Shown: positions 33,661 to 50,213 of the stretch, piece by piece | Layout of the letters: each line of letters starts with the position of its first letter | Position numbering within the stretch: position 1 is the stretch's first letter | Source of the DNA: a virus | Reading direction: 5' to 3' (one strand) | Length of the DNA stretch: 64,000 bases | Virus genome (UHGV): UHGV-1451962 | Translations under genes and position numbers: made by a program | Notes under the pieces: generated by a model | The model's input: only the letters and a program-made list of their open reading frames with translations | Told to the model about the DNA's origin: nothing | Databases searched by the model: none

Positions 33661-34002
33661 TCAAATCGGCCCAAAGACGTCCGGTTCATCGGAAGAGGTG
33701 GGCGTTTGTGGCGTCAGATTATTCATCACAGTTTCATATTTTATGCCATTTTTAGTATTCTCACGAGTGGCTTTATTATAATAAAAAGCTTGACTAACTG
33801 CATAAGCAGCCCAAGGTAAACTGGCTTCCGCGGCTAACCAAGGCAAAGAACCAGTAAATCCTTCGTGAATGCAATAAAATGCTAGAATAATATGAGCGAG
33901 AGAATGAACCCATATTAAAGCAGATTCTTGAGCTAAAAGAACTTTTGAAAATTCTTTTTTCTTTTTTCTTTTGTTTCTATTCTTTTTAACGAAGTTTATC
34001 AT
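33661..34002 (-). CDS. putative holin
   Basis: 113 aa, two hydrophobic helices (LIWVHSLAHIILAFYCI, LPWAAYAVSQAFYY); overlaps the end of the endolysin gene. Confidence 0.4.
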   Translation of the reverse strand: MINFVKKNRNKRKKKKEFSKVLLAQESALIWVHSLAHIILAFYCIHEGFTGSLPWLAAEASLPWAAYAVSQAFYYNKATRENTKNGIKYETVMNNLTPQTPTSSDEPDVFGPI

Positions 34003-34783
34003 ATAATCTCTTCATTATAGTGACGCCTTCTAGTCTGGTTAAAAACTTATTAGGCATTAATTTGCCAGTTTCGTCACCTTTAATTAGTCCCATAGAAACT
34101 GCCCAATTTAATTCATCTTTGCCCCAATCAGCATTTTGTTTAGCTAATTGAACTAAATAATTATTCATCATTTCATTAAATTTTTCTTGAGTCATGTCTT
34201 CATCCTCCTCTTGTTTAATTGTAGGTTTATTATTATTATTTGTTTTAGGTTTTTCAATTATAAAATAATATTTTACTTGTTGTTTGAAAAGACTATAATT
34301 ACCTCTAGTGCGTGCGGTTTTTGTGCTGTTAGGGTCATTAATATAAATAGTGTTTCCTTGAATATTCCACACTAAAATGAAATGACCACTACTTGTCCAT
34401 AATCCTTTGCCCATACAAGCTATAACTAAATTACCTTTATCAATTTCAGCTTTTGCTAAATTATGATATTTACTAGAACTATTACCATAAATATTTGCAC
34501 CATTCAGCATATAGGCTGTTAAACCGTATCGTGCAGCAGCAGGTTTAAAATATCCATAATAAGTTCCTTGGTGAGGAGCTTTATAACCATGCGCTAAAGC
34601 CCAGGCACATTCAGTTTTTGGAGTAACTTTTTTATCTGCCCATGTAGCTAAAACCATAGACATTGCGGTGGGACCGCAGCCAGAAGCGCCGATTGTAGTT
34701 GATTCACCTTTTGCTGAATAGCTAATATTTTTCCATCTTGCGTCTGTTTGTAAATAAGATACAGGCTGTGTATTCATATACAT
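33986..34783 (-). CDS. endolysin: papain-like (C39-type) cysteine peptidase with C-terminal SLH-like cell-wall-binding domain
   Basis: Q...GASGCGPTAMSMVLA Cys motif; C-terminal NWAVSMGLIKGD...LMPNKFLTRLEGVTIMKRL resembles SLH repeat. Confidence 0.5.
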   Translation of the reverse strand: MYMNTQPVSYLQTDARWKNISYSAKGESTTIGASGCGPTAMSMVLATWADKKVTPKTECAWALAHGYKAPHQGTYYGYFKPAAARYGLTAYMLNGANIYGNSSSKYHNLAKAEIDKGNLVIACMGKGLWTSSGHFILVWNIQGNTIYINDPNSTKTARTRGNYSLFKQQVKYYFIIEKPKTNNNNKPTIKQEEDEDMTQEKFNEMMNNYLVQLAKQNADWGKDELNWAVSMGLIKGDETGKLMPNKFLTRLEGVTIMKRLYDKLR

Positions 34784-34807
34784 TCTTCTTTCTTTTGTTT
34801 TAAAAAA

Positions 34808-34832
34808 AGAGCTAGGATAAAATCCTAGCTCT
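34808..34832 (-). terminator. rho-independent terminator
   Basis: AGAGCTAGGA-TAAAA-TCCTAGCTCT stem with T-run on minus strand downstream of PhoH exon 2. Confidence 0.5.
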
Positions 34833-34851
34833 TTGATTATTATTATTATTA

Positions 34852-35280
34852 TTAAATTAATTCTGCGAGTTCTGCTATTTTAGATCTATGGATATTATTT
34901 AAAGTTACTTCTCCATAAATATCAGAACCTCTAAAAATTTTAGACATTCTTCTCATGCCATTGTTATTACCAGAATAAGCTAATGAGTCAACTTGCGTTT
35001 TAGCATCACCATCAATAATACAAATACAATCTTCACCAATACGTTGAAGAGCTAATTTAATTAAAGTTCTGTCTAAATTTTGTGCTTCTGTTATATAAAT
35101 ACCTGCGTTCATTCCGCTAGTATCATAACCTCTAATATCGCTAAAAGGCAATAAAACTAATTTATCTTCTTCCATCATACGAAGAACACCTTCTTTACCG
35201 CCCAATTTGGCGGAAAGCATATTACCAATTTGTGAGTCAAGTAATTTATCGTCTTTTGTACCTGGGTAAACATTAAACAT
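34852..35280 (-). CDS. phoH: PhoH2-like ATPase, 3' exon (C-terminal part)
   Basis: PhoH C-terminal motifs LPFSDIRGYD, ITEAQNL, IIDGDAKTQVDS; continues the P-loop domain that ends at 36547; exact splice junction not determined. Confidence 0.55.
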   Translation of the reverse strand: MFNVYPGTKDDKLLDSQIGNMLSAKLGGKEGVLRMMEEDKLVLLPFSDIRGYDTSGMNAGIYITEAQNLDRTLIKLALQRIGEDCICIIDGDAKTQVDSLAYSGNNNGMRRMSKIFRGSDIYGEVTLNNIHRSKIAELAELI

Positions 35281-36546
35281 TATAGCTTTCGCTATAAACC
35301 TGACTATATCTTATTTCAAACTATTTTTTAAACTAATATATTTATCATATTTTCTTTTTAAAAATCTTGGATTATTATCATAAAGAGTATTTAAAATATT
35401 TAATACTTGTATTCTACCTCTCCATTGTGTATGCCACGCGGTAGTATAAAAATTTTTGTTTTTTTTATCTGATTGTATTAGAAGGTTTATTATATTTTGA
35501 AAATCTTCAACTTCTGTCTCACAATAAGCTGTATAACTTAATGTTACATCTGTGCTAAAATTTTTACTATATGAAAGACCGCCATCACCATCAAATAAAC
35601 CTAAAGCATAAGCTGATAAATATTCTTTAGGGATTTTTTCATAAGGAATATGTGTTATTTTATAAGTTTTATTTGGCACTATATTATATTTTGCTAAGTC
35701 ATTATAAATTTGTTCATCTACAAATTCAACTGAACAACAAGTGCTATTTGGACGAATATCATAGATAATTTTACTATCTATTTGAATATCATTTTTAAAT
35801 TTTTCAAGAAGTTCTATATCTTGTTCTTGAATTTGTAATCTAATTCGCCCAGTTTTTCGATAATGGTCTACACTTCCATCTGTAAATAAAAATCCTAGCC
35901 AATATGCTTTAATAGGAGAGTCGATAATTGAAAAATAATCACTTTTAATTCTCCTATTAATTTTATTTGTATTTGTAACTTTGATATTTAATTCTTTTAA
36001 CCTTTTCTTCGTTGTTTCAACATCCAAATTACAATATTTAGCAATTTCTTTAAGAAAAGCTCCTTCTTTAATCATTTTTTTAATAGTAATAATTTGTTCA
36101 TCAGATAAATTTTTCTTTTTTCTTCCACCTCTTATTACAACATTATTATCTGTAAGAAGTTTTGTTAAATTACGTCTATTATAAGAAGGATATTTTAAAA
36201 GTAATTTAGTTATTGACTGACCTTCTAAATACTCTTGTACAATTTGTTTTTCCATAAACTATCTCCTTTATTTTAATATTATATATTATTTTTATTAAAG
36301 ATAGTTTTTCTTTGTTTGTCCAAAATTTTTCAGTTTGAAATCCATGCGCTTCGGAATTTTACTTCCTACTCTACTCCCTTACTATAGTTTCGATAGTCGA
36401 TGAGCCTTCCTCTATTCGAGGCTTGGTTGCTGATTGTCCAATCTATATTATTTTTAAACGTTCACGCTTAGATTTATTTCATTCTTACGTTGTAGTTAAT
36501 ATAGCTCTAAGGATGTTCCAGCAGTTCACATGGTTTTACTTGAGCC
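35281..36546 (-). mobile_element. group I intron (ORF-containing) interrupting PhoH2-like gene
   Basis: About 1.27 kb separates the two PhoH halves; 290-nt GC-elevated non-coding segment (36256-36546) with stem-loops, plus a free-standing LAGLIDADG ORF; GNRA hairpin TATAGC-GAAA-GCTATA just before exon 2. Confidence 0.55.
35311..36255 (-). CDS. LAGLIDADG homing endonuclease (intron-encoded)
   Basis: Two LAGLIDADG motifs (AYWLGFLFTDGS, AYALGLFDGDGG); own RBS AAGGAGA; 314 aa. Confidence 0.8.
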   Translation of the reverse strand: MEKQIVQEYLEGQSITKLLLKYPSYNRRNLTKLLTDNNVVIRGGRKKKNLSDEQIITIKKMIKEGAFLKEIAKYCNLDVETTKKRLKELNIKVTNTNKINRRIKSDYFSIIDSPIKAYWLGFLFTDGSVDHYRKTGRIRLQIQEQDIELLEKFKNDIQIDSKIIYDIRPNSTCCSVEFVDEQIYNDLAKYNIVPNKTYKITHIPYEKIPKEYLSAYALGLFDGDGGLSYSKNFSTDVTLSYTAYCETEVEDFQNIINLLIQSDKKNKNFYTTAWHTQWRGRIQVLNILNTLYDNNPRFLKRKYDKYISLKNSLK

Positions 36547-37416
36547 TTACCCTATTTTAATTAACCCAAGTCTTGCGGAATTAATAGTTGCCACTGTATT
36601 ACAAAAGATTATAATTTTATCTATTCTATTTTTTTCTAACATATACATTAAAAAAGCTAGAGAAATGTAAGATTTTCCTACTCCTGCTGGGCCTTGTAAC
36701 AAAGTAATTTTATTATTAGCTAAACTATCAAAAGCACATTTTTGATATATGTCTCCTTGATATGGTTGTACTTTTCCAAACCAGGTAGAATCAAAAGTAG
36801 GAAATTTTAAGTAACGATAAGTTTCTCCTGACCAAACCCGCACATCTATAAGTTCATCAAAATTATCAGGATTTTTTAAAAGTAGATATTCTCCTTTTTT
36901 AAGATTAAAATGATTATAGTTAGGATTTTCATAAAATTTAGAAATTAATTCTTCACTAGCAGTAATTTCTGCAATTCCACTATAAGTATCTAAATCTTCC
37001 TCAATAGAAGAAACATTTTCTTTGGGAAACAAACATAAAGCAATATGTTTTAAACTTAAATCATTAGTTATAAATTCTAAACATTTATTTGTTTCAAACT
37101 CATTCCAAGCATCAGACAAAATTCTAGCATCATCATTAATATCAAAATTCATTTTATCTAAAATGTATTCATAATTTATTTGATGAATTTTAACAGAATA
37201 ATTATTTGGATATTTTTCAAATAAATGAAGCAAAAGTCTTGCGGAATATTTTATATCAGAATCTTTATTTGCCGCAGTTTTAATTCTTTCTAATTCTTTT
37301 AAAGTAATAGAAGAAATGATAAATTTCTCATCATCTTCAAAAGCTGATTCTCCGGCTAATAAAAGACTACAAGTATCGTAGAATTTAATAATAATTTCCA
37401 CTCTCCTATTGTTCAA
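36547..37416 (-). CDS. phoH: PhoH2-like protein, 5' exon (PIN-like N-terminal domain plus Walker A of PhoH domain)
   Basis: N-terminal PIN-like region (YDTCSLLL); C-terminal LLQGPAGVGKSYISLAF P-loop; ORF ends ~6 codons past the point where PhoH homology stops. Confidence 0.55.
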   Translation of the reverse strand: MNNRRVEIIIKFYDTCSLLLAGESAFEDDEKFIISSITLKELERIKTAANKDSDIKYSARLLLHLFEKYPNNYSVKIHQINYEYILDKMNFDINDDARILSDAWNEFETNKCLEFITNDLSLKHIALCLFPKENVSSIEEDLDTYSGIAEITASEELISKFYENPNYNHFNLKKGEYLLLKNPDNFDELIDVRVWSGETYRYLKFPTFDSTWFGKVQPYQGDIYQKCAFDSLANNKITLLQGPAGVGKSYISLAFLMYMLEKNRIDKIIIFCNTVATINSARLGLIKIG

Positions 37417-37469
37417 ATAAGATAAAATAAATTATCTTTCTTTATTAGATTAAAAAATAAATAAAATAA

Positions 37470-37907
37470 TTAATTATTTATGGCCTTTCTTTGTCTTTTT
37501 AGAGAAGTAATTACTTTACTTTGAGCTTTTAAATATGTATTTAATTCTTTTTCTTCTGTTTTAATATAATCCAAATACTTATTAATTTGCTGTTTTAGTC
37601 TTACTATTTCTTTAATGACAATGATATACTCACATTTTTTATTTTCTCTTAAAATATCGTTATAAAATCTTTTTACAGCATTGTATTCAATATTAGTTTT
37701 TTCTTTAATATCTTTTAAAGCATTAATAATTGCTCTTTTGTGAGCTATTGTTTGACCTACTTTGGTTGAGAAAAAGTCCATATCATCAGAATGACAAGTA
37801 GCAGTCCCAGTATAGTATTTTCGTTCATAATAAACTATTGCCTCAATTGAATTATTTGTGTAATTAAATTCTACGGGTAAAAGATTAATTGTTTTTCTTA
37901 GACTCAT
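37470..37907 (-). CDS. hypothetical protein
   Basis: 145-aa ORF with AGGAGAATTTTA RBS; coiled-coil-like C-terminal half. Confidence 0.45.
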   Translation of the reverse strand: MSLRKTINLLPVEFNYTNNSIEAIVYYERKYYTGTATCHSDDMDFFSTKVGQTIAHKRAIINALKDIKEKTNIEYNAVKRFYNDILRENKKCEYIIVIKEIVRLKQQINKYLDYIKTEEKELNTYLKAQSKVITSLKRQRKAINN

Positions 37908-37989
37908 TAAAATTCTCCTATCTTATTTTATATTATAATTATATCATAAATTCTGAGAAAAATAAAATTCTTGGTATTTGCGTAAAAAA

Positions 37990-38075
37990 TTGCTAGAGGC
38001 GCGAAAATTCGGCGACACGGGCTGCCACGAGTATGCACGAAGACCCTAGAGCAAAAGTACTCTAGGGTCTTTAAT
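37990..38075. other. GC-rich non-coding island with terminal hairpin (candidate small RNA or protein-binding element)
   Basis: GCTAGAGGCGCGAAAATTCGGCGACACGGGCTGCCACGAGTATGCACG then hairpin AGACCCTAGAG...CTCTAGGGTCT; GC far above local background. Confidence 0.3.
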
Positions 38076-38078
38076 TTA

Positions 38079-38621
38079 TTACTTAATTCTATTTTTAATA
38101 TCCTTAATAATCAAATCAATAGAAACAGGGAAATTATTATGAGCATCTAATTCTACATGATAAATAAGACCTTTATCCCAATCCGCAAAAGCGTCCTGAC
38201 TATGAGAGTGTCCGCACAAACTAATCATTCTTGCTTTAAGAGGTTTCTCATTATCAAAATTACTACAAAGTGTAGGATAATGGCTTAAATAAAAATGATA
38301 TTTACCATATCTTAAAAATTGACCTTCAGTTACTTTAATAATATTATTACAATTATTATATAAATTTACACGAACTTCACTATCATGGTTTCCTCTAACT
38401 ACATAAATTTGTCCTTTTAACTGTTTAATTTTTTCAATTCCTGCTTCATTATCATTTAGCATCAAATCACCAAGCACATAAACTTTATCATTAGGACGAA
38501 TAATTTTATTCCAATTTTCAATAATTGCGTTATCATGTTCTTGGATATTCTTAAATCCTCTTGGTTCATAAAGAAAGGGCTTATTATGGCCTAGATGAAG
38601 ATCACTGGTAAACCAAACCAT
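38079..38621 (-). CDS. calcineurin-like metallophosphoesterase
   Basis: Motifs DLHLGH, GDLMLN, GNHD, HSH; 180 aa. Confidence 0.75.
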   Translation of the reverse strand: MVWFTSDLHLGHNKPFLYEPRGFKNIQEHDNAIIENWNKIIRPNDKVYVLGDLMLNDNEAGIEKIKQLKGQIYVVRGNHDSEVRVNLYNNCNNIIKVTEGQFLRYGKYHFYLSHYPTLCSNFDNEKPLKARMISLCGHSHSQDAFADWDKGLIYHVELDAHNNFPVSIDLIIKDIKNRIK

Positions 38622-38623
38622 TA

Positions 38624-39136
38624 TTACACCTCCTCAGGATAATGCAAAATAGTATTCACATTATGAAAACCCCAATCAAAATATTTATTCATTTCATCCT
38701 TAGAAGGAATAGAAGATTTAAAATAAAAATTTTTTATTGCTTCTTCTGGGACTTTAGCGAAACCTTCTCTTTCAGAATTTCTTCTTAAAGCAACATCTAA
38801 AAGAATAGGAAAATAATCAAAAGTAAGATTAATATTATTCTTATCTTTCAGATCAAAAAAATTGTTTAAAAGTTTAGCTCTTGAAGAAATATCAATATGA
38901 GTCGCATCTATATAAATATTTTCTACATTTTCTTTAATCGCGATTTTAATATTTGCAATCATTTCTTTATATACCTGTTTTTCTTTACTAAAATAATTTT
39001 TTCCAGGATTTTCGTCTACATAATTCTTGCGGATTTCATCTCTTGAGATAATCTTACCATTCTGCTGTTTTGCCCAAGTAGATTTGCCGGAAGCAGGAAT
39101 ACCACAAAGAATATGCAAATTAATCATAAATACCAA
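38624..39136 (-). CDS. P-loop kinase, polynucleotide-kinase-like (AAA_33-type)
   Basis: Walker A CGIPASGKST at N-terminus, 170 aa; directly upstream of the metallophosphoesterase. Confidence 0.5.
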   Translation of the reverse strand: MVFMINLHILCGIPASGKSTWAKQQNGKIISRDEIRKNYVDENPGKNYFSKEKQVYKEMIANIKIAIKENVENIYIDATHIDISSRAKLLNNFFDLKDKNNINLTFDYFPILLDVALRRNSEREGFAKVPEEAIKNFYFKSSIPSKDEMNKYFDWGFHNVNTILHYPEEV

Positions 39137-39395
39137 ACTCCTTTACATAAGAAATACTATTTTGTGCTTCTTCTTTAAAAAGTCCTTCTTCAAAATCTAG
39201 TTTAAAATTATATGCTTCTTCATCATTTCTACATTCTACCATATTAACAGTTTCTTTACAATGGGGACAATACATAACTTTCTTATGCCCAACTTCTCTA
39301 AAACGTCCTCTTAATCGAGGAATTGACATTGACTTCTTTCCGCAATTCATACAATAAAAATCGTGCATTTCATATTTTCTAGGGTCTTTAGACAT
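39120..39395 (-). CDS. zinc-ribbon protein
   Basis: CMNCGKK...CPHCKE pattern; start at ATG after GAGGAG RBS. Confidence 0.45.
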   Translation of the reverse strand: MSKDPRKYEMHDFYCMNCGKKSMSIPRLRGRFREVGHKKVMYCPHCKETVNMVECRNDEEAYNFKLDFEEGLFKEEAQNSISYVKEFGIYD

Positions 39396-39567
39396 TTTTA
39401 TCAAACTCCTCAATTTGTTTTTTTACAATTTCAAAATATTCTTTAAGCTCTTTATTTTCTTTACTTTTGTTTATTCTTTTAATTTCTGTTTTTTTCCAAA
39501 ATTTATATTTTAATGTTTCTATATAATTTGTAAAAATAATATGTATATTGTTATCTTTTAAATATTT

Positions 39568-39795
39568 TTATGTATAAAGAGGTTTTAAAAAAACAACTGA
39601 ATGTTCCTGTAAATTATAAATTTCTGGATCTAAATTATAAAAAGAAACAAAATCTTTTAATTTTAAAATTATATATTTATGTGTTTTTGTAATTTTGCGG
39701 TCTGTTCTATAATTATCATATTGACATATAATATAAAATCCTATGAAAGGTAACGCTAATCCTAATATTAATTTTGCCATAATTATTTCCTCCAT
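39568..39795 (-). CDS. small membrane protein
   Basis: 75 aa with one hydrophobic helix (LILGLALPFIGFYIIC). Confidence 0.4.
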   Translation of the reverse strand: MEEIIMAKLILGLALPFIGFYIICQYDNYRTDRKITKTHKYIILKLKDFVSFYNLDPEIYNLQEHSVVFLKPLYT

Positions 39796-40508
39796 TAAAT
39801 AGAAAAGATATGTTCATCAAAAGTATTTAAATCAAAAAGAATAATTTGTTTACTCCAATGAGTATCTAAATCAAGATTAACCTTTTGATTATTATTATAC
39901 CAACAAGCTCCACCTTCATATTTAGGAGGATTGCGAAATTCTCCTATATCTTCTATCATTAGAGGAATTGGGGTATGGCCATGAACAATTAATTCATTTG
40001 GATTAATTAAACATCTAAATTTATAATGTAATCTATTCCAAAGAAAATCAAATTCATCACCAGAAATATTATTAGGAGAAAAACCTGCATGACTTAAATG
40101 AATTTTAATTCCATTTTTATTAGTGTATTGTTCATAAACTGGAAGTTTATTAATTACATTTAAATACTCAATAGCATTTTTTTCTTTAGACCAATCTAAT
40201 AAAGTAGATAAACCTCCATTGTTCATATGAAGATAAATATCATCTCCATATAAACATTTTTCATTTTTTAGAAATTCTCTTCCAGAATTTACTAACATTT
40301 GTTCATGGTTTCCTTTAAGAAGGATAAATCTATCATCTTTTAAAATTTCTTTAAGGATTTTCCAACCTTCTGTCCCTCTGTCAATTACATCACCCAACAC
40401 AAATACTTTATCTTCTGCTTGAATGAAATTTTTAATCTGCTTAAACAAATTTGAATTGCCATGAAGGTCAGTAAAACAATAAACTTTACCCTTATTCATA
40501 AACATCAA
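39795..40508 (-). CDS. metallophosphoesterase (PPP/ApaH-like phosphatase)
   Basis: Motifs DLHGN, GDVIDRG, GNHE; 237 aa. Confidence 0.7.
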   Translation of the reverse strand: MMFMNKGKVYCFTDLHGNSNLFKQIKNFIQAEDKVFVLGDVIDRGTEGWKILKEILKDDRFILLKGNHEQMLVNSGREFLKNEKCLYGDDIYLHMNNGGLSTLLDWSKEKNAIEYLNVINKLPVYEQYTNKNGIKIHLSHAGFSPNNISGDEFDFLWNRLHYKFRCLINPNELIVHGHTPIPLMIEDIGEFRNPPKYEGGACWYNNNQKVNLDLDTHWSKQIILFDLNTFDEHIFSI

Positions 40509-40524
40509 TTCCTTTCTTAATTTC

Positions 40525-40560
40525 TATATATATTATATAATATTTTTTTAAAAAAATAAA
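40525..40560 (-). promoter_or_regulatory. promoter-leader cassette (TATAAT -10 plus conserved AGAAA(G/T)TAAG..AGG leader)
   Basis: Minus-strand TATAAT at 40532-40537, about 25 nt upstream of start codon; same cassette recurs at many minus-strand gene starts. Confidence 0.4.
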
Positions 40561-40562
40561 TT

Positions 40563-40591
40563 AAGGGCAAAAGATCTTAATCTTTGCCCTT
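40563..40591 (-). terminator. rho-independent terminator
   Basis: AAGGGCAAA...TTTGCCCTT stem downstream of gene 40599-40817. Confidence 0.55.
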
Positions 40592-40598
40592 AATTCTT

Positions 40599-40817
40599 TT
40601 AATCTTCAATTTCTTCTATTTCACCATTAATAATTCTTTTACAATATTCTTCTTCACAAATATCATCTAAATTATGAATTGTATCAAAAGAATAATATAA
40701 ATTAATATAATCTTCTTTCGTTGCGTAAGGATTTGCAAACATAAAATTGTCAAAATCCTTATCTACCATAGCACGAATATATTCCATAAAATCTTTTTTA
40801 TCAATTACAATTTTCAA
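40599..40817 (-). CDS. hypothetical acidic protein
   Basis: 72-aa ORF. Confidence 0.4.
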   Translation of the reverse strand: MKIVIDKKDFMEYIRAMVDKDFDNFMFANPYATKEDYINLYYSFDTIHNLDDICEEEYCKRIINGEIEEIED

Positions 40818-40994
40818 AGAATAAAGCCTCCGAGCCGCAAGATTTCAAAAATAAACCAAAATACACAAAAAAGAAACCAGAAAATACGCATTTTCTTTTC
40901 TTGACATCTATTGTGTAAAATTGTTTCGCATAGCAAAACTCCATTAATACACATTAAAATGCCCCAAATAATCGTCATTATTAAATGAAACATA

Positions 40995-41444
40995 TTAGGT
41001 CATTACCTCCGATACAATTTGATTAACAATTTTCATATCTGCCTTACCCTTAAAAACAGGAGCAAAAAGTTTCATTGCTCTACCTTTGTTTGCCTTAGTT
41101 GCATCAAGTTCATTTTCGGCAAGCATTTTTTCAATTTGAGTTTTAATTGTTTCTTTATCGGTAAGAAGCTGTGGTGCATACTGCTTTACAACAGCCATAT
41201 CAAGATTATATTGAATAAATAACTCTTTGCGGTTTTCTGGACAAGTATCAATCATTTCTTGAATCATCTTTTGATACTTAATTAAAGTATTATTAACAAG
41301 CTCTTCGGTAATTTCAATTCTGCCTTTTGGCGTAATTGCTGCTTTTTGTACTTCACCAATCATATTGGAAAGTACATTCTTCTTTTGAGTATCACCATTC
41401 TTCAAAGCCTGCATCATATCATTGTGCATAATTTCTAAAGTCAT
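40995..41444 (-). CDS. GatB/YqeY-domain protein
   Basis: 149 aa; colinear with bacterial YqeY proteins (N-terminal MTLEIMHNDMMQALKNGD..KKNVLSNMIGEVQK, C-terminal KGKADMKIVNQIVSEVM). Confidence 0.65.
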   Translation of the reverse strand: MTLEIMHNDMMQALKNGDTQKKNVLSNMIGEVQKAAITPKGRIEITEELVNNTLIKYQKMIQEMIDTCPENRKELFIQYNLDMAVVKQYAPQLLTDKETIKTQIEKMLAENELDATKANKGRAMKLFAPVFKGKADMKIVNQIVSEVMT

Positions 41445-41446
41445 AT

Positions 41447-42724
41447 TTAAACCTCCTGTGCTTCTTCCATATCGGGCTGGGTTTCAGTATCTTTAACTAG
41501 ACCTTCAAGAACTTTAAATTCCCAGGTTTTTTGTTTTAATGCAGTAAAAGTACGTCTATTAGCGATTCTAACCACTACACCTTCTTTAACATGAGTTAAA
41601 CCAATTGGGTCAACAATATCTTCAAAATATTTGTCAATTTTAGCGAGCAAGTCATCAATAGTAGTAAACTCAAAATCCTCAATGATAGGAACACGATTAA
41701 AACCATATTCATTGCACCAAGTAGTAATTTCCTCTGGAGAATATTCATATTCACCATTATGAGAAGTAATTCTATAAATCCACATTGCAGAATGACCAGG
41801 AGTACAACCATAAGAAAAAGTAGTATATTTACCAAACTTTTTCATAAATTTCTTGTCATTGATTTTACTATTATCTACAATTGGCATAATAGTTTCATTT
41901 TCTTTTGCTCCATACCAACCAACTACTTCATAAAAAACCTCCATACCTTCATTAAGATAAGGTTTCAAAGCTTCATGGTGACTAAATCTAAATTTGTCAT
42001 TACCATAATAACCTGCTCCATCAGTGGTAACAACAGTTCTACGAGTACCTAAAACATACTGCAACTTTCTCTTAGGTTTCATGTGAAATAGCTTTCTAAA
42101 CCAAGACATAGGATATTCTGCCCAAGTATATGCACTACGTTGGCTAGTACCATGCATTTTAAGGGTTAGATTAATTTTATCTCCAGGTCTAAAGATTCCA
42201 AGATTATAAGCTAATTGGGCAGTATTAATATGCATGGCAAAATCAGGATACTTAATTCCAGCTGCTTTACGACCTTTATAAGAAGTTTTAGGAGTAGTGC
42301 GAGGAGTAGCCGAAGGTTTAGGAATATATTTATAACAAAATAGCTTATTATTAATTTCAGTGACTTGATCGCCATCTTTCCAATTTTGCTCACCAAAATG
42401 CTCAACAATAGTAGAATAAGAAATAACAATACCAGAAGATTCATTACCTCTTAGCTTAATTGCTCTAATATGAGCATTATTTTCCAAATAACCACCTTGT
42501 GCGGTACCATCTAAATTCTTGCGGAAAAGCTTAAACTCATCACCAAACCAACGCTCAATAGCTCCATCAGTAGGAAGATAAAGAACTAATTCATCTTCCT
42601 TCATATCAGGGCCTACAATAACTCCTTCTCTAAAACAATCTGCTAAATAGAGTCTATCAGAATTAGGGTCTTTTCTTACATTTTCAATTTTAGTTACTAA
42701 ACCATAGTACGCCATAAATGTCAA
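41447..42724 (-). CDS. RNA ligase-like nucleotidyltransferase (Rnl2/Rnl5-like with N-terminal extension)
   Basis: Candidate motif I KMHGTS (KxHG, as in T4 Rnl2 KIHG), downstream FYEVVGWYG and LKQK motifs; 425 aa. Confidence 0.45.
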   Translation of the reverse strand: MTFMAYYGLVTKIENVRKDPNSDRLYLADCFREGVIVGPDMKEDELVLYLPTDGAIERWFGDEFKLFRKNLDGTAQGGYLENNAHIRAIKLRGNESSGIVISYSTIVEHFGEQNWKDGDQVTEINNKLFCYKYIPKPSATPRTTPKTSYKGRKAAGIKYPDFAMHINTAQLAYNLGIFRPGDKINLTLKMHGTSQRSAYTWAEYPMSWFRKLFHMKPKRKLQYVLGTRRTVVTTDGAGYYGNDKFRFSHHEALKPYLNEGMEVFYEVVGWYGAKENETIMPIVDNSKINDKKFMKKFGKYTTFSYGCTPGHSAMWIYRITSHNGEYEYSPEEITTWCNEYGFNRVPIIEDFEFTTIDDLLAKIDKYFEDIVDPIGLTHVKEGVVVRIANRRTFTALKQKTWEFKVLEGLVKDTETQPDMEEAQEV

Positions 42725-42734
42725 ACTCCTTTAT

Positions 42735-43004
42735 TTAAATTTCATAACCTTGCACCTCCATAACTGCTAAAGATTTATAGACCATTTTACCACTTTTACT
42801 TTTAGCTTTTGTTACCATACCCATTTCAATCAAATGCCCAAGAATCCTAGCCATTTTTTGAGTGGAAACACCTGTTAATTGAATACTATTCTTTTTAATT
42901 TCATCTATTGTCATGGCTTCTGCTGATTGAGCAAGAATAACCGCAGTTTCACCTTGCCAAATTGCAGTCTGATCTTTACTATATTTGCTTTTTCTATAAG
43001 TCAT
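42735..43004 (-). CDS. hypothetical protein
   Basis: Start moved to ATG (MTYRKSK...) after GAGGAG RBS. Confidence 0.45.
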   Translation of the reverse strand: MTYRKSKYSKDQTAIWQGETAVILAQSAEAMTIDEIKKNSIQLTGVSTQKMARILGHLIEMGMVTKAKSKSGKMVYKSLAVMEVQGYEI

Positions 43005-43017
43005 AAAATTCAACTCC

Positions 43018-43848
43018 TCAATTTTTAATAAACCATTCTTTGCCAAAGTAAGTAGTATGATGAGTAATACATGAAGTTAATTTTTTTTCAATTGCAGAAA
43101 TGGTAGTTCGGTTCTTTTCTTTAACCATTAAATTATAAATTGCTTCAACAGCAGTTTTTTTATCAAAAAAATAACCACTACAATTTGTTTTTTTACAGTT
43201 AGAGTTTTTAAAATATACTACTCCTTGCGGGACATCTTTTAAAGCTGTTTTCTTTTTAATAATTTTTTTATCTTCTTCTTCAATTTCAATAAAATCCATA
43301 ATTGGAAAAAGAAAATTTCTAGCTGCGTTCCAATTAAAATCTTTTTGAGTTTCCACAGCAATATTATATAACATAATAGCATCATCTAAACTATTATGAT
43401 TCTGTAAATTATCATATTTATTTAAATAAGAATAAAATTTAGTTAGTTTAATATTGTCGATTTTTAATTTTTTACAAATTTTTCTTGAAAAATCTCTAAT
43501 AGAACCACTCATATATCCTAAAATAGAACGTGCTTTTAAAGAGTTAGTTCTTTTAAATGTATGTCGAATATATTCTACATCACAACTACCCCAAGTATAA
43601 AATTCAGGAAAATTATCCTCCAATTTATTAAAAACCCAATCATATAACTTTTCAAAAACTTCTTCGGAATTTGGAGCGTTATTTAATTTTTCTTTTGTTA
43701 AACCAGTTAATTCAATAAGAGCGTTAGTAATTTTTCCTTCTTTAGGTTTTACAAGAGAATAAAAAGTTTTTCCATCTTCTCTTACAACACCTACTGAAAT
43801 AATTTCCTCAACATATTTTGCAGCTTCAAAGTCAATATAGTATTTCAT
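43018..43848 (-). CDS. DnaQ-like 3'-5' exonuclease (DEDDh)
   Basis: Exo I YIDFEA (DxE) near N-terminus and exo III HNSLDDAIMLYN. Confidence 0.6.
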   Translation of the reverse strand: MKYYIDFEAAKYVEEIISVGVVREDGKTFYSLVKPKEGKITNALIELTGLTKEKLNNAPNSEEVFEKLYDWVFNKLEDNFPEFYTWGSCDVEYIRHTFKRTNSLKARSILGYMSGSIRDFSRKICKKLKIDNIKLTKFYSYLNKYDNLQNHNSLDDAIMLYNIAVETQKDFNWNAARNFLFPIMDFIEIEEEDKKIIKKKTALKDVPQGVVYFKNSNCKKTNCSGYFFDKKTAVEAIYNLMVKEKNRTTISAIEKKLTSCITHHTTYFGKEWFIKN

Positions 43849-43927
43849 AAAACTTCAACCTCTTTCTTATTTATTTATTCCTTAACTTTCTATATATATT
43901 ATATAATATTTTTTTAAAAAAATAAAT

Positions 43928-43957
43928 TAAGGACAAAACTTTTAAAAGTTTTGTCCT
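43928..43957 (-). terminator. rho-independent terminator
   Basis: AAGGACAAAACTTTT-AAA-AGTTTTGTCCTT stem downstream of gene 43980-44498. Confidence 0.55.
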
Positions 43958-43979
43958 TAAATTTAAAATAAATTTCTTT

Positions 43980-44498
43980 TTAACTAGAACATTCATTTAC
44001 AGAATCTTCGATAGCATTTTTATTACTTATTGCTTCAATACAGTAATCCAATGCCTTTTCAGTAAAAACACCAATTCCAATCATTGCTTTTACTTGTTCT
44101 TTACTGAGATAACGCGCAGTCATTTTCTCATTTACTTTCATTTTTTTGCTGCCATTATAGAAACAATGGTAGCCATAGTCATATCGTGTAGCATAGTCAG
44201 AGTTATTATCAAAAATCCTTTCGCCAGGAGTAAAAATAACCTTATAAAAACGATTCATTTCTTCTCCTGTAAATACTTGACGGCTGATGCTTGAGTTGTA
44301 TAAAAATGTGATAGTTTCATCAGGATTATTTCGATCGGGCATTTTGCGGGCACCCATAGCTAAAGTGCTTCCACCAGTATGACAATTACATACAATCAAC
44401 AATTCTTTATCAGCTTTGATGGCATCTTCTAAATCTTTGCTTTTGTAAAACGCGATACGTCCATTGGGGAAAATTCGTGCTTCATATTTATTAGTCAT
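43980..44498 (-). CDS. hypothetical protein
   Basis: 172-aa ORF; LIVCNCHTGGSTLAMG segment, no firm family assignment. Confidence 0.45.
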   Translation of the reverse strand: MTNKYEARIFPNGRIAFYKSKDLEDAIKADKELLIVCNCHTGGSTLAMGARKMPDRNNPDETITFLYNSSISRQVFTGEEMNRFYKVIFTPGERIFDNNSDYATRYDYGYHCFYNGSKKMKVNEKMTARYLSKEQVKAMIGIGVFTEKALDYCIEAISNKNAIEDSVNECSS

Positions 44499-44500
44499 TA

Positions 44501-44830
44501 TTATTTCTCCCTTAAAGTAATTGTATAAATTTTTCCATCTACTTTTAGTATTTCATAATCTTTATATAATTCATTAACTGAAACAGAATCATTTATAATA
44601 ACATCATAACGACAAGGAGAAGAATCATCAGATTTTAAATAAAAAGCAGCTAATAAACCAATCGTTACTCCCCATATAAGAGGTACTAAATTTCCTTCAG
44701 GTGTCATATCAAACCAAAGCATTTTAACTAAAAAGAAAAACAATATACCAGTTAAAATACTAAGAATAATAATTAAACTTGCATCCAAAGTAAAATCATA
44801 TTGTTTTAAAACTGTAACGCCATCAATCAT
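44501..44830 (-). CDS. small membrane protein
   Basis: 109 aa with two hydrophobic helices. Confidence 0.4.
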   Translation of the reverse strand: MIDGVTVLKQYDFTLDASLIIILSILTGILFFFLVKMLWFDMTPEGNLVPLIWGVTIGLLAAFYLKSDDSSPCRYDVIINDSVSVNELYKDYEILKVDGKIYTITLREK

Positions 44831-45569
44831 TAATTAAATCCTCTAAATTATAAATATTTTCAAATAACATATATCTACCATCATAGTAATCTGTATTTGC
44901 GTGAAAATGTCCCCAGAACCAATTATTCCAAGAAAACTTATCTTTTAAATCATTCATCCAAATTTCCATAGTATTGTCAATAGTAGATTGATCAATTCCA
45001 GGAAGAAATAAAGCAGTAGGACGCCAATCAAAAGGACAAGTATGAGATAGAACTAAATCATAATGATGATTAATCACTTTATTGTTAATATCTAACATCT
45101 CTTGCTGTGTTAATTGTTCATCAGGAAACCAACCAGTCCAATCATCGGTACGATTCAAAGTAGCCTGCATTAATCTATAATGTTTATCAACCGAATAAGC
45201 ACCACCAAGAACAATAGCAGAATGACCATTAAAGTAGTAAGTATTTCCGTCAATCAAATATTTAAGGTTAGGAAAATCCGGTTGAGTATAAATCCAACCT
45301 TGAATTTCTGCATCCCAAATTTCTTGAATATTAGGTAAATTTTTAGGATGCTCTTCATGGTTTCCCCGCACACAATAAATTGAATATCCTAAATCATTTA
45401 CTCTTTTCTTCCACTTTTGCTCTTTTTTATCTAACCAAAAATTAAATCCTGCATCTCCAAGAATAATAAGAGAAGAATTTTTAGGAGAGCAAGAATATTG
45501 TTCAATCATTTGACAAATACGTTGATAATTTTTACCGTGCGTATCTCCAGTAATAAAGTACTGTTTCAC
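44823..45569 (-). CDS. metallophosphoesterase
   Basis: Motifs GDTHG, GDAGFN, GNHE; 248 aa. Confidence 0.7.
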   Translation of the reverse strand: MKQYFITGDTHGKNYQRICQMIEQYSCSPKNSSLIILGDAGFNFWLDKKEQKWKKRVNDLGYSIYCVRGNHEEHPKNLPNIQEIWDAEIQGWIYTQPDFPNLKYLIDGNTYYFNGHSAIVLGGAYSVDKHYRLMQATLNRTDDWTGWFPDEQLTQQEMLDINNKVINHHYDLVLSHTCPFDWRPTALFLPGIDQSTIDNTMEIWMNDLKDKFSWNNWFWGHFHANTDYYDGRYMLFENIYNLEDLIND

Positions 45570-45581
45570 TAGAATTCCTCC

Positions 45582-46478
45582 TTAAAAAGTAGTAGGTTGA
45601 AAATATGAGCATAAATAACTTTCAATGATATTTAATAATACTTCATCCATGTAATTAGAAATTTCTACATTAATAGAATAATTTTTTCTTTCATTACTTA
45701 ATCGCTCATACTGATTCTTTACCCATTCTTGCTGATCTTCAACAAAAATTTTTACAAAACTTAAATCTTCATATCCATTTTTATAAAAGATTAATCTTTC
45801 TCTCCAAAAACTATCATAACACTTTAAACAAATAGAATAAGAATCATTCAAGTAACAACTATAAAATAATCTAAGTCTATTTAAATGGCTAAAGCACTTT
45901 GGGTCATAACCAAATTTTTCTACAACTTCTTTTCGACTCTCTGTTGGTTTAAACATGCGATTAATCTCATTTTGCATCATGCCAAGCATACTATTTAAAG
46001 CTCTAAACTCATCATAATGAGCAATTTCATCTCTTTTATAAATTAATTTATTCCAAAAAGATTGATATTTTGGATTTACATAATAGTAATCAGTGTATAA
46101 AATTTCTAAAAAATTAATATTCTGTTTGCGGAATTCATTCATATAAAGCCGCACATCTTTAAAATCAATGTGTTCATTATTATCTAAAACATGAGTATAA
46201 CTCACTGGTTTTTTATTAAAAGCCAAATCTTCAATAGTAGGAATAATAAGACATTTAGTATCAACATCCGAATTTGCTGTATCAAGACCATAATTAGCGG
46301 CACCTTGATAAAAAATACCAAGAATATTTTCTTCAGAAAAAATTTTTAAAGCTTCTTGGTAATGCTCCATTACTCTTGTTTGAATTTCAATATAAGAATG
46401 ATAATTGGTAGATTTTTCCTCTTGCTTTTGAATATAAATAGTTTTAATAATATTATATAAATTTTGATAATTATTCAT
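45582..46478 (-). CDS. Pol-beta-superfamily nucleotidyltransferase
   Basis: Minimal NTase signature GAANYGLDTANSDVDT (G[SA]x9-13 DxD); 298 aa. Confidence 0.5.
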   Translation of the reverse strand: MNNYQNLYNIIKTIYIQKQEEKSTNYHSYIEIQTRVMEHYQEALKIFSEENILGIFYQGAANYGLDTANSDVDTKCLIIPTIEDLAFNKKPVSYTHVLDNNEHIDFKDVRLYMNEFRKQNINFLEILYTDYYYVNPKYQSFWNKLIYKRDEIAHYDEFRALNSMLGMMQNEINRMFKPTESRKEVVEKFGYDPKCFSHLNRLRLFYSCYLNDSYSICLKCYDSFWRERLIFYKNGYEDLSFVKIFVEDQQEWVKNQYERLSNERKNYSINVEISNYMDEVLLNIIESYLCSYFQPTTF

Positions 46479-46479
46479 A

Positions 46480-46824
46480 TTAAATCTCCTCCCAATGATT
46501 ATGCTGAATAATTCTTCTCATATTTTGAACTCCCACAGGATTTTGGGAATGAAGATGAAATTTACAAGAAAGAGGCCAAGCAAAAGCATTTTGAACTCTC
46601 TCTAACCAATTTAAAATTTCAATATAATCGCCACCATCAGAAGCAAAATCTCCAGCATCATAGTCGAGAGATATTAAATCAAGAAAAATATCATCAGTTA
46701 ATCCAATTAAAAAACCATTTTGAGCAAAAGAAATCATAGTTTTCGCTTGTTCGACAGATTTAGCCCAAATATAACCAGTAGGCGCAGGTCGAATATCATC
46801 CACCCATAATTTCATAAACATCAA
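46480..46824 (-). CDS. hypothetical protein
   Basis: 114-aa ORF, 2-nt gap to upstream gene. Confidence 0.4.
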   Translation of the reverse strand: MMFMKLWVDDIRPAPTGYIWAKSVEQAKTMISFAQNGFLIGLTDDIFLDLISLDYDAGDFASDGGDYIEILNWLERVQNAFAWPLSCKFHLHSQNPVGVQNMRRIIQHNHWEEI

Positions 46825-46874
46825 TTCCTTTCTTAATTTCTATATATTATATAATAATTTTTTAAAAAAATAAA

Positions 46875-46897
46875 AAGGGAGTCAAAATGACTCCCTT
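46875..46897 (-). terminator. rho-independent terminator
   Basis: AAGGGAGTC-AAAA-TGACTCCCTT stem downstream of gene 46902-47963. Confidence 0.55.
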
Positions 46898-46901
46898 AAA
46901 A

Positions 46902-47963
46902 TTATTTTATAATATTTTTAAAACGCTCTAACATAACTGCCATTTGCTCTCTAGTTAAATAAGCTTTGGGTAAAAGATAGCCTTTATCATCACCTTGAAG
47001 AATACCTGTACTAACAGCCCATTCAACACTTGCTTTAGCCCAATTAGAAATATCATTTTTATCTTTAAATTTATCTAATGTATTCATATTTGTCCTCCCA
47101 ATATTATAATATTTATCAATATCAATAGAATTTGGTTCAGGTAAAATTACCGCACCAAATCCTGTTTTTGGATCAATTCCCTTATCGCCTATATCTTTAC
47201 AATTATCTTTGAAGAATTGAATCATTCCTTCTCTTGTTAGAGGTAATCCTTTTTTATCAATAAAGAAATCATCTACCAGACAGCTCATTCCACATAACCA
47301 AGGTGTAGAAAAAGAAGTGCCAGAATTGGAATAAGTTGCTGCGTCTGGTTTTGTAGCTTGCGGATTTAAATAAATCATACTAGGCGCAGAAAAGTCTACA
47401 TAATTACTAATACTAGAATAATAAGCAGGATTTACTGTACCATCTACCATTAAAGTATAAGCAGCTACGCCGATTACTTCTTCAATTTCCATAATTGGAT
47501 TATATTTTTTAGAAGAATCATTTCCTGCGCTCCAAAAGGGTTTAAAATTAGGATGTTTAATATACCAATTTTTTAAATCTTCAAAAAATTTGGTATGTCT
47601 ACTACAATTTAAAGAGGTAAACATATTGGTAATATTATATTTTTCAATAATTTCTACTGATTCATTAAAAAATTTAGAGTTATAATTATCTCCACCGCCA
47701 TAACTGCCATCAATGGAATAAAGCATAAATAAATGAGCTTTTGGAGCTACTTGGAAAAATGTTGCCGCGGTATTTATTGGATGTTCATTTGACATTTGTT
47801 TATCTTTTAAACAATTTCTTACTAAATTATCTGGATTATATCTATTAATATCCCAGGTTTCTCCACTTGCAGCATTTACTCTTTCTCCAAAATAGCCCGC
47901 ATTATGGAAACGAGTTACACCTGTAAAGTTTCTATGTCTATTATCATCATTTAATAATATCAT
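46902..47963 (-). CDS. subtilisin-like (S8) serine peptidase-like protein with C-terminal SLH-like domain
   Basis: SAGNDS and SNSGTSFSTPWLCGM resemble subtilisin Asn and Ser motifs; C-terminal NWAKASVEWAVSTGILQGDDKGYLLPKAYLTREQMAVML resembles SLH. Confidence 0.45.
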   Translation of the reverse strand: MILLNDDNRHRNFTGVTRFHNAGYFGERVNAASGETWDINRYNPDNLVRNCLKDKQMSNEHPINTAATFFQVAPKAHLFMLYSIDGSYGGGDNYNSKFFNESVEIIEKYNITNMFTSLNCSRHTKFFEDLKNWYIKHPNFKPFWSAGNDSSKKYNPIMEIEEVIGVAAYTLMVDGTVNPAYYSSISNYVDFSAPSMIYLNPQATKPDAATYSNSGTSFSTPWLCGMSCLVDDFFIDKKGLPLTREGMIQFFKDNCKDIGDKGIDPKTGFGAVILPEPNSIDIDKYYNIGRTNMNTLDKFKDKNDISNWAKASVEWAVSTGILQGDDKGYLLPKAYLTREQMAVMLERFKNIIK

Positions 47964-47984
47964 TTTAATCCTCCTTATAAAAAA

Positions 47985-48010
47985 AGAGAGGTAAAATTAC
48001 CTCTCTCTTA
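47985..48010 (-). terminator. rho-independent terminator
   Basis: AGAGAGGTAA-AATT-ACCTCTCTCT stem downstream of gene 48020-49543. Confidence 0.5.
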
Positions 48011-48019
48011 AAATACTAT

Positions 48020-49598: not shown

Positions 49599-49682
49599 TG
49601 GTACCAGAAGCGGGACTCGAACCCGCACGCATAAAGCGAAAGTTTTTGAGACTTCTTTGTCTACCAATTCCAACATTCTGGC
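49599..49682 (-). tRNA. tRNA-Leu (anticodon CAA)
   Basis: Cloverleaf by eye: acceptor GCCAGAA/TTCTGGT, anticodon loop CTCAAAA, long variable arm, T-loop TTCGAGT, encoded CCA. Confidence 0.8.
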
Positions 49683-50059: not shown

Positions 50060-50135
50060 TGGTGGCTCGCCTGGGATTTGAACCCAGCACATCTTGCTTA
50101 AAAGGCAAGTGTTCTACCTAATGAACTAGCGAACC
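50060..50135 (-). tRNA. tRNA-Lys (anticodon TTT)
   Basis: Acceptor GGTTCGC/GCGAGCC, anticodon loop CTTTTAA, T-arm CTGGG-TTCAAAT-CCCAG, encoded CCA. Confidence 0.85.
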
Positions 50136-50137
50136 AT

Positions 50138-50213
50138 TGGAGCTAGCGAAAAGACTTGAACTTTTAACCTGCGGTTTACAAGGCCGCTGCACTACCTATT
50201 GTGCTACACTAGC
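50138..50213 (-). tRNA. tRNA-Thr (anticodon TGT)
   Basis: Acceptor GCTAGTG/CGCTAGC, anticodon loop CTTGTAA, T-loop TTCAAGT, encoded CCA; 2-nt gap to tRNA-Lys. Confidence 0.75.

Follow-up and report, generated by a model that had tools for sequence, protein, structure and literature searches.

What could a phage use a putative RNA ligase for, when the ligase is encoded together with a kinase and several phosphoesterases right beside an array of tRNA genes? The question is raised by a gene island in the virus genome UHGV-1451962, which we analysed within a stretch of 64,000 nucleotides (hereafter the window). A sequence-only reading had likened the island to the T4 Pnkp/Rnl set for repairing cut tRNAs. 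Judging from protein families and gene context, the island is probably an RNA healing-and-sealing system, and probably one for tRNA; the most likely substrates would then be host and phage tRNAs that have been cut by bacterial defence ribonucleases. This is supported by, among others, two observations: i) a DNA ligase, a guanylate kinase, an RNase H and RecJ are encoded separately in the window; and ii) the island directly adjoins 17 tRNA genes (49599-60251; ARAGORN), 15 of which were confirmed at the Rfam gathering score, in line with the number given earlier. The open reading frames (ORFs) that the sequence-only reading had named are all present, all on the minus strand, and their family assignments hold in profile searches of Pfam and PHROG (Table 1). 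Taken together, the evidence speaks more for a module that heals and seals RNA ends than for the alternatives that were listed in that reading. Three gene starts had to be moved: an ATG with an AAAGGAG-type ribosome-binding site places the real starts of the kinase, the PPP enzyme and the ligase at 39127, 40499 and 42715, in each case 9 nt inside a TTG-started ORF (38624-39136, 39795-40508 and 41447-42724, respectively). The ligase start agrees with that of a 422-aa protein that is 98% identical (P0001). A megablast of region 38079-46478 against 50,697 phage records returned no match, and the island thus has no cultured close relative among them.

The ligase had been read as a nucleotidyltransferase with a KxHG motif. 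This motif is KMHG (residues 186-189), and the protein matches PF09414 (RNA_ligase) with 27.4 bits, just over the cut-off of 27, and phrog_968 ('RNA ligase') with an E-value of 1.8e-45. Searches of the PDB, both with the single sequence and with a profile of 25 homologues, retrieved no ligase and only chance matches (viperin, RAP), and therefore folds were compared instead. The AlphaFold model (25 homologues; mean pLDDT 74) consists of an N-terminal beta-barrel domain, a disordered linker and a nucleotidyltransferase domain, without a folded C-terminal domain. It scored 21.6 against the RNA ligase of Naegleria gruberi (5cot; 289 of 340 residues), 13.6 against T4 Rnl2, 12.8 against archaeal Rnl3, 12.6 against trypanosome REL1 and 10.3 against T4 Rnl1. 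The scores were 11.2 or less for DNA ligases and 9.2 or less for capping enzymes, which speaks against the alternative that the ORF encodes a relative of either; a separate ATP-dependent DNA ligase is encoded at 27650-28747. The further motifs are FYEVVG (261-266), KEGVVVR (377-383), LKQK (393-396) and FSYG (300-303), the last of which is motif IIIa by our own assignment. Invariant in the 25 homologues are K186 (motif I), E263 (motif III), E378-G379 (motif IV) and K394 and K396 (motif V).

The order of an N-terminal OB domain and a nucleotidyltransferase domain, without a C-terminal appendage, defines the Rnl5 ligases (PMC4408790, PMC7261155), and the same order was found in the model of the window ligase. 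We therefore regard the enzyme, on its modelled architecture and motifs, as a divergent and catalytically intact ligase of the Rnl5 type. Its N-terminal half matches TIGR02306, the family of DraRnl, and a DEDD exonuclease is encoded nearby, just as DraRnl shares an operon with a DEDDh exonuclease (PMC5397189). The differences with DraRnl and NgrRnl are nevertheless considerable: the window ligase is about 80 residues longer and only about 16% identical, its motif I has a histidine as in T4 Rnl2 where that of NgrRnl has Asp172 (PMC7261155), and it is embedded in an island with a kinase, phosphoesterases and an RlaP-like enzyme. Other members of its clade, phrog_968, are encoded by Bacillus phage vB_BcoS-136 (43.5% identity), Lak phages and hundreds of actinophages (~22-26%), and none of the clade has been characterised as far as could be found. 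In a reaction that depends on Mn, characterised Rnl5 ligases seal 3'-OH/5'-PO4 nicks of which the 3'-OH strand is RNA (PMC4408790); their physiology was termed 'uncharted' by the discoverers.

The kinase, earlier described as a P-loop protein like polynucleotide kinase, is indeed an AAA_33/KTI12 protein of phrog_505. Its PDB matches are PSTK (E 4e-8), Pnkp1 (4xrp, of the Pnkp1-Rnl-Hen1 complex; E 1e-3) and, weakly, T4 Pnk, all of which work on RNA or tRNA; TIGR04075 is matched weakly as well. In the HMMER alignment to T4 Pnk (1ly1) the motifs GxPxSGKSTWA, (N/S)RD(D/E)xR and (K/R)RNS(K/E)R line up, where GIPASGKST, SRDEIR and RRNSER of the window kinase correspond to K15/S16, D35/R38 and RNSKR of T4 Pnk. 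The catalytic residues are invariant or nearly so among 21 orthologues. The kinase, which aligns with T4 Pnk, Pnkp1 and PSTK, is not predicted to be a dNMP kinase, and the guanylate kinase of the window is a different gene.

The metallophosphoesterase gene next to the kinase has its start codon 2 nt past the kinase stop, and wherever a relative has both genes, they are neighbours. The encoded enzyme (Metallophos_2, phrog_547) matches best, within the PDB, the uncharacterised Aq_1665 (1xm7, E 7e-6), and its motifs DxH, GD, GNHD, SHxP and GHxH are present and conserved in the orthologues. When it was searched against 1.8 billion representative proteins, 12,917 relatives were recovered. Five of the best 150, which were inspected, are fusions of an AAA_33 kinase and a Metallophos_2 domain according to Pfam (P0140, P0172, P0188, P0217 and P0237; 341-348 aa). 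The kinase comes first and the phosphoesterase is C-terminal in these fusions, which is the same order as in the gene pair of the window. In the two that were compared directly, the kinase half shares 37-38% of its residues with the kinase of the window (E 2e-23 and 3e-26). The phosphoesterase part of the fusions is 38-46% identical to the window enzyme. Because of this homologous five-protein family, the adjacent genes can be taken to encode a split bifunctional enzyme, and by these domain predictions a gene fusion links only this one of the three phosphoesterases directly to the kinase.

The arrangement of the island is conserved. We compared the proteins of the window by tblastn with 44 related loci from metagenomes, IMG/VR and GenBank, and found the same gene order in about 30 independent metagenomic phage contigs, with proteins 35-72% identical to those of the window; the clustering can therefore not be a matter of chance. 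The conserved order is: DUF2828, (Major Vault Protein (MVP) shoulder), cREC, RlaP, metallophosphoesterase, (winged-helix), (DEDD exonuclease), ligase, an optional NAD-salvage cassette with or without YqeY, PPP, (Thg1-like or zinc ribbon), kinase, metallophosphoesterase, ORF145 and PIN-PhoH. It persists down to a ligase identity of 36-39% (39% in L039), in contigs of ~105-150 kb. The slot upstream of the kinase holds either a zinc-ribbon protein (L027-L030, L039) or a Thg1-like gene, the PPP gene stays between ligase and kinase in nearly all relatives, and the DUF2828 gene is kept at the head of the island. A number of relatives (L001-L005, L014, L023-L026, L034, L039) encode an 811-aa protein with an MVP shoulder domain beside the DUF2828 gene, the Thg1-like gene upstream of the kinase, and a PncA-Prs-NAPRT-NadE NAD-salvage cassette between the ligase and PPP genes; L004 also has a Band_7 protein. 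No match to the Thg1, MVP and NAD-salvage genes was found in the 64-kb window with an E-value of at most 1e-5 and half or more of the query aligned. The related contigs were binned with metagenome-assembled genomes (MAGs) of Eubacterium, Oscillospiraceae, Lachnospiraceae and Clostridia, which is only suggestive of a host.

More distant systems show a displacement that bears on the phosphoesterase. In Bacillus phage vB_BcoS-136 the ligase gene is followed by that of a kinase-HD fusion, and contig L035 has the order ligase, HNH, kinase-HD, RlaP, Macro, NADAR. The ligases of these systems are 43-44% identical to that of the window, the kinase 30% (E 1e-9), and RlaP is adjacent; the HD phosphoesterase is fused to the kinase, whereas the window has a separate metallophosphoesterase gene. 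We had considered that the C-terminus of the vB_BcoS-136 'polynucleotide kinase' might be a metallophosphoesterase, which was rejected since it is an HD domain. As HD and metallophosphoesterase domains swap in the same slot, a phosphate-removing role of the metallophosphoesterase gains support. In Cluster E and Omega-type mycobacteriophages a polynucleotide kinase or metallophosphoesterase and a DnaQ-like exonuclease are encoded within a few kb of the orthologous ligase. Contig L035 also carries an IS605 OrfB/TnpB-like gene (7182-8312; Cas12f-like TNB domain) ~1.7 kb upstream of the ligase, with HNH genes interspersed.

The minimal nucleotidyltransferase of the sequence-only reading is an RlaP-like Pol-beta enzyme: its own match to PF10127 falls below the cut-off, and 11 of 12 orthologues match the family (E up to 0.01, best 5.5e-6), with G59, S70-D71-x-D73 and D108, the Pol-beta catalytic motif, invariant. 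The gene lies at most 4 kb from the ligase in all relatives, and in L035 directly after the kinase-HD gene, ~1.7 kb from the ligase. Damaged RNA 3' ends are extended by 1-2 nucleotides by RlaP enzymes, which restore tRNA function and have RNA-only substrates (PMC12776372). The third phosphoesterase, which also has the Metallophos match expected of it, always neighbours the RlaP-like gene in the relatives. Sequence and profile searches of the PDB gave nothing useful for these two proteins, and no match at all for the RlaP-like one. The cREC protein contains the conserved pairs of aspartates (D6-D7 and D52/D54), and such domains are predicted to act on cyclic ADP-ribose derivatives and on RNA ends (PMC7824862, PMC9503650). 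The YqeY assignment also stands, and the protein is a possible tRNA-binding accessory; the DUF2828 and DUF7788 protein might be a scaffold. A whole-window Rfam search at the gathering threshold found no structured RNA besides the tRNAs, such as a Y RNA-like partner of the DUF2828 protein.

The second phosphoesterase, read earlier as PPP-type, is of the lambda-phosphatase type by its profile. Built from 11 orthologues, the profile matches the lambda Ser/Thr phosphatase (1g5b) over the full length (positions 3-181, E 1.4e-16), followed by ApaH and PP1. The motifs GDxxDRG, GNHE and HGHT do not vary among the aligned orthologues, at least 90% of which have a conserved DLHG (DxH). Its substrate may be a protein or an RNA end. 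In phrog_8238, a family of 737 positions that is annotated as RNA ligase, the kinase aligns to positions 1-140 and the PPP enzyme to 170-308, a pattern suggestive of kinase-PPP-ligase fusion proteins in other phages.

Since the list of components matches a predicted RNA-repair 'syntax' and the biochemistry of RlaP is known, a pathway can be proposed, for which we infer the activities, the order of steps and the substrate from the folds, motifs, gene order, fusions and displacement described above. Bacterial defence ribonucleases leave 2',3'-cyclic phosphate and 5'-OH ends. The kinase would phosphorylate the 5'-OH end, after which its putatively translationally coupled partner, the metallophosphoesterase, would strip the 2',3'-cyclic or 3'-phosphate to yield a 3'-OH; this phosphate removal may be supplemented or broadened by the PPP enzyme, cREC and the third phosphoesterase. 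Where nucleotides have been lost or ends are ragged, the DEDD exonuclease might trim and the RlaP-like enzyme might add 1-2 nucleotides, and relatives carry a Thg1-like 3'-5' polymerase as well. Finally, the ligase, adenylylated on Lys186, would join the 3'-OH to the 5'-PO4 in a duplex-like context, such as base-paired tRNA halves would supply, and its OB domain and the YqeY protein may help to recruit the tRNA. A more specific version, which is tentative and which we rather doubt, would make the sealing of tRNA by an Rnl5-type ligase with a Trbp111/CsaA-like OB domain the first physiological RNA substrate of an Rnl5, with the COG4186/Aq_1665-type metallophosphoesterase and the PNK-type kinase as an uncharacterised class of polynucleotide kinase-phosphatase and YqeY as the presenter of the tRNA.

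To our knowledge, phage repair of defence-cut tRNAs was shown experimentally only for T4-type enzymes, and the rest is comparative genomics. With T4 Pnkp and Rnl1, which act against PrrC, the island shares the succession of kinase, 2',3'-phosphate removal and ATP-dependent ligase in a phage with tRNA genes, and this part of the resemblance that had been proposed stands. The enzymes themselves are different: the ligase is of the Rnl5 type and not a tRNA-specific Rnl1, and the kinase is a free-standing protein of 167 aa with AAA_33 only, no HAD domain being found by Pfam either fused to it or elsewhere in the island ORFs, so that phosphate removal would fall to the binuclear metallophosphoesterases. 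The bacterial CthPnkp-Hen1 and Pnkp1-Rnl-Hen1 systems likewise have a PNK-type kinase, a calcineurin-like binuclear phosphoesterase and an ATP-dependent ligase, but CthPnkp is a single kinase-metallophosphoesterase-Rnl4 polypeptide where the window has separate genes, and the partner of the window kinase is of the COG4186/Aq_1665 type and not lambda-phosphatase-like. A methyltransferase domain as in Hen1 was absent from the ORFs that were searched by Pfam (33986-49543); the short ORFs 39568-39795, 40599-40817 and 40814-40993, which were searched against PHROG only, gave no match.

A close parallel is the RNA-repair 'syntax' that comparative genomics predicts for phages and bacteria (PMC7824862, PMC9503650). 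It comprises ligase, kinase, phosphoesterases (rarely calcineurin-like), RlaP, cREC, TROVE-type proteins, Thg1 and arrays of many tRNAs. The island has the predicted component list, with the DUF2828/phrog_850 protein as candidate TROVE-type member. According to the survey of Burroughs and Aravind (2016), as summarised by Iyer et al. (2021), phage ligases are mainly Rnl1, Rnl2 and RtcB, with 'rare divergent versions' in actinophages (PMC7824862). Here, a divergent Rnl5-like ligase is central to a large conserved island in gut phages of ~145 kb, and the split kinase/phosphoesterase pair and the YqeY gene have no mention in such a context in two related papers. The kind of system is known, from T4 and comparative genomics; the island differs by the Rnl5-like ligase at its centre, the split kinase and COG4186-type metallophosphoesterase, the YqeY protein, and the organisation as a large, conserved island of three predicted sub-operons by the tRNA genes.

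Several findings weigh against a tRNA-repair role. The analogy with T4 is one of logic only, as an Rnl5-type ligase takes the place of Rnl1. The sealing of duplex nicks with an RNA 3'-OH strand was shown for characterised Rnl5 ligases, and for none of them the sealing of a break in an anticodon loop. Of the characterised Rnl5 ligases, the one physiological role that is known concerns the survival of radiation and the reassembly of the genome in Deinococcus (PMC5397189). Moreover, the ligase remains far under the equivalog cut-off of TIGR02306 (30.6 bits versus 151.15), with only residues 12-202 aligned, which together with the lack of a PDB sequence or profile match makes it a member of a divergent Rnl5-like clade. 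The PPP profile matches the CthPnkp phosphatase (4j6o) over a short stretch only (E 1.6e-4), and a CthPnkp-type assignment was rejected since lambda phosphatase is far closer. YqeY lies inside the island in ~13 relatives, at a variable position, and is absent from many. Finally, the fused kinase-phosphoesterase P0172 (loci L052/L053, phage contigs of 114 kb) heads a cluster of gyrB, gyrA and an NAD-dependent DNA ligase with no RNA ligase within 8 kb, so that the fusion family is not confined to RNA-ligase neighbourhoods and this context fits the processing of DNA ends equally well.

The last point belongs to an alternative in which ligase and DEDD exonuclease repair nicks in DNA or mixed RNA/DNA (primer remnants, ribonucleotide patches or host-nuclease damage), and in which the kinase-phosphoesterase pair would work on DNA as 5'-kinase and 3'-phosphatase, an ability that mammalian PNKP and T4 Pnkp have. 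It is a real contender because of the duplex-nick activity of Rnl5, the link of DraRnl to an exonuclease operon and to radiation survival and genome reassembly (PMC5397189), and the position of P0172 beside gyrB, gyrA and LigA in another phage; the island also borders a replication module with gyrase, RNase H, DNA ligase, RecJ and Pol III. Yet the phage has its own ATP-dependent DNA ligase and a separate guanylate kinase, the nearest solved relatives of the kinase work on tRNA or RNA, and the conserved partners either are specific to RNA or have a link to its repair (RlaP, cREC, Thg1-like in relatives, phrog_850, YqeY and the tRNA arrays), and we therefore hold this alternative to be distinctly unlikely.

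A mixed counter-defence island, which we consider rather unlikely, would restrict RNA repair to the ligase and the kinase/phosphoesterase pair, while the PPP enzyme would dephosphorylate proteins of host or phage, and immune signals derived from nucleotides or ADP-ribose would be broken down by cREC and the third metallophosphoesterase. The full-length match of the PPP profile to a Ser/Thr phosphatase agrees with such a division, as do the NAD-salvage genes in the ligase-PPP interval of the relatives, the association of the ligase with Macro and NADAR domains in L035 and the predicted handling of cyclic ADP-ribose derivatives by cREC (PMC7824862, PMC9503650). Against it, the PPP gene keeps its position between ligase and kinase, the third phosphoesterase is always found by RlaP, and phrog_8238 suggests kinase-PPP-ligase fusions. 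Lambda phosphatase itself is reported to have 2',3'-cyclic phosphodiesterase activity (Keppetipola and Shuman, 2007). Routine maturation of the phage's own tRNAs (trimming of ends, addition of 3' nucleotides, or the joining of tRNAs that are split or contain introns) or other phage RNA splicing would explain why the island adjoins the 17 tRNA genes and has promoter-like cassettes in common with them, and the DEDD exonuclease, the nucleotidyltransferase and the Thg1-like enzyme of the relatives represent activities of tRNA maturation. However, the tRNA genes are complete and unsplit (ARAGORN, Rfam), the only intron seen is a probable one of group I, a self-splicing type that needs no ligase, and the combination of kinase, phosphoesterase and ligase is a signature of the repair of cyclic-phosphate/5'-OH breaks and not of bacterial tRNA maturation, which makes this explanation highly improbable.

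The island is abundant in gut metagenomes of humans and animals. If it heals and seals RNA, this would suggest that defence aimed at tRNA weighs heavily on the large phages of gut Clostridia. The island represents a compact and conserved set of candidate enzymes, the context of which could reveal the natural role of the Rnl5 nick-sealing ligases, and it offers a candidate new type of kinase-phosphoesterase for end healing. Should the enzymes act on DNA ends, the island would bear on the question whether the nick-sealing 'RNA' ligases are in fact DNA-repair enzymes.

Table 1. Features of the island and its surroundings in the window
Feature	Position	Strand	Details
PIN-PhoH gene, downstream edge of island, intron-interrupted	34852-37416	-	
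Metallophosphoesterase (Metallophos_2, COG4186/Aq_1665-like)	38079-38621	-	180 aa; Pfam 38.5 bits, phrog_547 E 1.9e-42
PNK-type P-loop kinase (AAA_33/KTI12)	38624-39127	-	167 aa; phrog_505 'polynucleotide kinase' E 2.8e-17
Small zinc-ribbon protein	39120-39395	-	phrog_1257, E 6.8e-11
PPP / lambda-phosphatase-type metallophosphoesterase	39795-40499	-	234 aa; Metallophos 48.5 bits, phrog_246 NinI-like
Terminator-like hairpin and promoter-like cassette	40505-40590	-	Upstream of PPP-kinase-phosphoesterase sub-operon; repeat family D1/D3
YqeY (GatB C-terminal-like) domain protein	40995-41444	-	PF09424 59.2 bits, cut-off 27, residues 6-146
RNA ligase, Rnl5-type (predicted), ATP-dependent	41447-42715	-	422 aa; N-terminal tRNA-binding-like OB domain and nucleotidyltransferase domain
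103-aa protein, weak winged-helix (TrmB-like) match	42735-43046	-	E 0.002; upstream of ligase, conserved in synteny
DEDD (RNase_T/DnaQ-like) 3'-5' exonuclease	43018-43848	-	PF00929, 40.3 bits
Terminator hairpin and promoter-like cassette	43871-43960	-	Upstream of exonuclease-ligase-YqeY sub-operon
Third metallophosphoesterase (Metallophos)	44823-45569	-	47.8 bits; phrog_1649
RlaP-like Pol-beta nucleotidyltransferase	45582-46478	-	PF10127 21.0 bits versus cut-off 23
cREC (cyclic-phosphate-processing receiver-like) domain protein	46480-46815	-	PF20274 69.3 bits, cut-off 27
Terminator hairpin and promoter-like cassette	46819-46897	-	Upstream of cREC-RlaP-phosphoesterase sub-operon
Subtilase-SLH protein	46902-47963	-	Occupies MVP position of relatives
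DUF2828 and DUF7788 protein	48020-49543	-	phrog_850 'RNA-binding protein', E 8e-113; adjoins first tRNA gene
tRNA cluster 1, 7 genes	49599-50910	-	ARAGORN, Rfam
tRNA cluster 2, 10 genes, one with 8-nt anticodon loop	58135-60251	-	ARAGORN, Rfam

The putative control elements of the island consist of a cassette that occurs three times. On the coding strand, a terminator-like, GC-containing hairpin and a T-run precede AAAAAAATATTATATAATATATATAGAAAGTTAAGAAAGGAA; after the hairpin come a conserved AT-rich box that resembles a promoter (…TATTATATAATATATATAGAAA…) and a ribosome-binding site. For a core of 27 nt, 4 matches were counted in the window where shuffled sequences predict 0, related copies are found at 50987-51027, 51223-51364 and 26254-26280, and a TTGAAA-17-TATAAT variant lies upstream of a tRNA cluster. 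Sigma-70-like sites as such were not above the shuffled controls in the window (93 versus 83.5 ± 8), and only the repeated cassette is meaningful. By consensus match the cassettes are predicted promoters and terminators, which would divide the island into three sub-operons: i) cREC, RlaP and metallophosphoesterase; ii) exonuclease, ligase and YqeY; and iii) PPP, zinc ribbon, kinase and metallophosphoesterase. In each predicted sub-operon, a nucleotidyl- or phosphotransferase stands together with a phosphoesterase or a nuclease.

The PIN-PhoH gene, on the downstream side of the island, is split by an insert of 1.3 kb, as judged from an intact orthologue of 418 aa: exon 1 ends around 36565 and exon 2 starts from 35265. 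The insert carries an ORF for a LAGLIDADG endonuclease (35311-36255), flanked by sub-threshold Rfam group I intron segments (36533-36342, 25 bits, E 7e-4; 35312-35282, E 0.033), and has the appearance of a group I intron that encodes a homing endonuclease; the first PIN-PhoH ORF of L027 and L030 is similarly truncated. Nearly all of the 17 tRNAs read codons that end in A or U, which fits a genome with 29% G+C. They include a tRNA-Ile with anticodon UAU (60176-60251, minus strand) and a tRNA-like gene (58844-58919, minus strand; Rfam tRNA 48 bits) with an 8-nt anticodon loop, the anticodon of which is written tgaa by ARAGORN. The two SLH-domain peptidases of the window, a C39-like cysteine peptidase (33986-34783, minus strand) and the subtilase listed above, hint at a host with an S-layer, in line with the Clostridia MAG bins. 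The module upstream (10718-33463, minus strand), a complete one for replication and nucleotide metabolism, encodes NrdD, guanylate kinase, Pol III alpha, an SF1 helicase, RecJ, DnaB, an AAA_24 protein, ThyX, the ATP-dependent DNA ligase, GyrA, GyrB, RNase H and a dUTPase. A serine recombinase is encoded on the plus strand (2731-3357). Between the two tRNA clusters, among ORFs without family matches, a radical SAM protein of 414 aa is encoded (51996-53240, minus strand).

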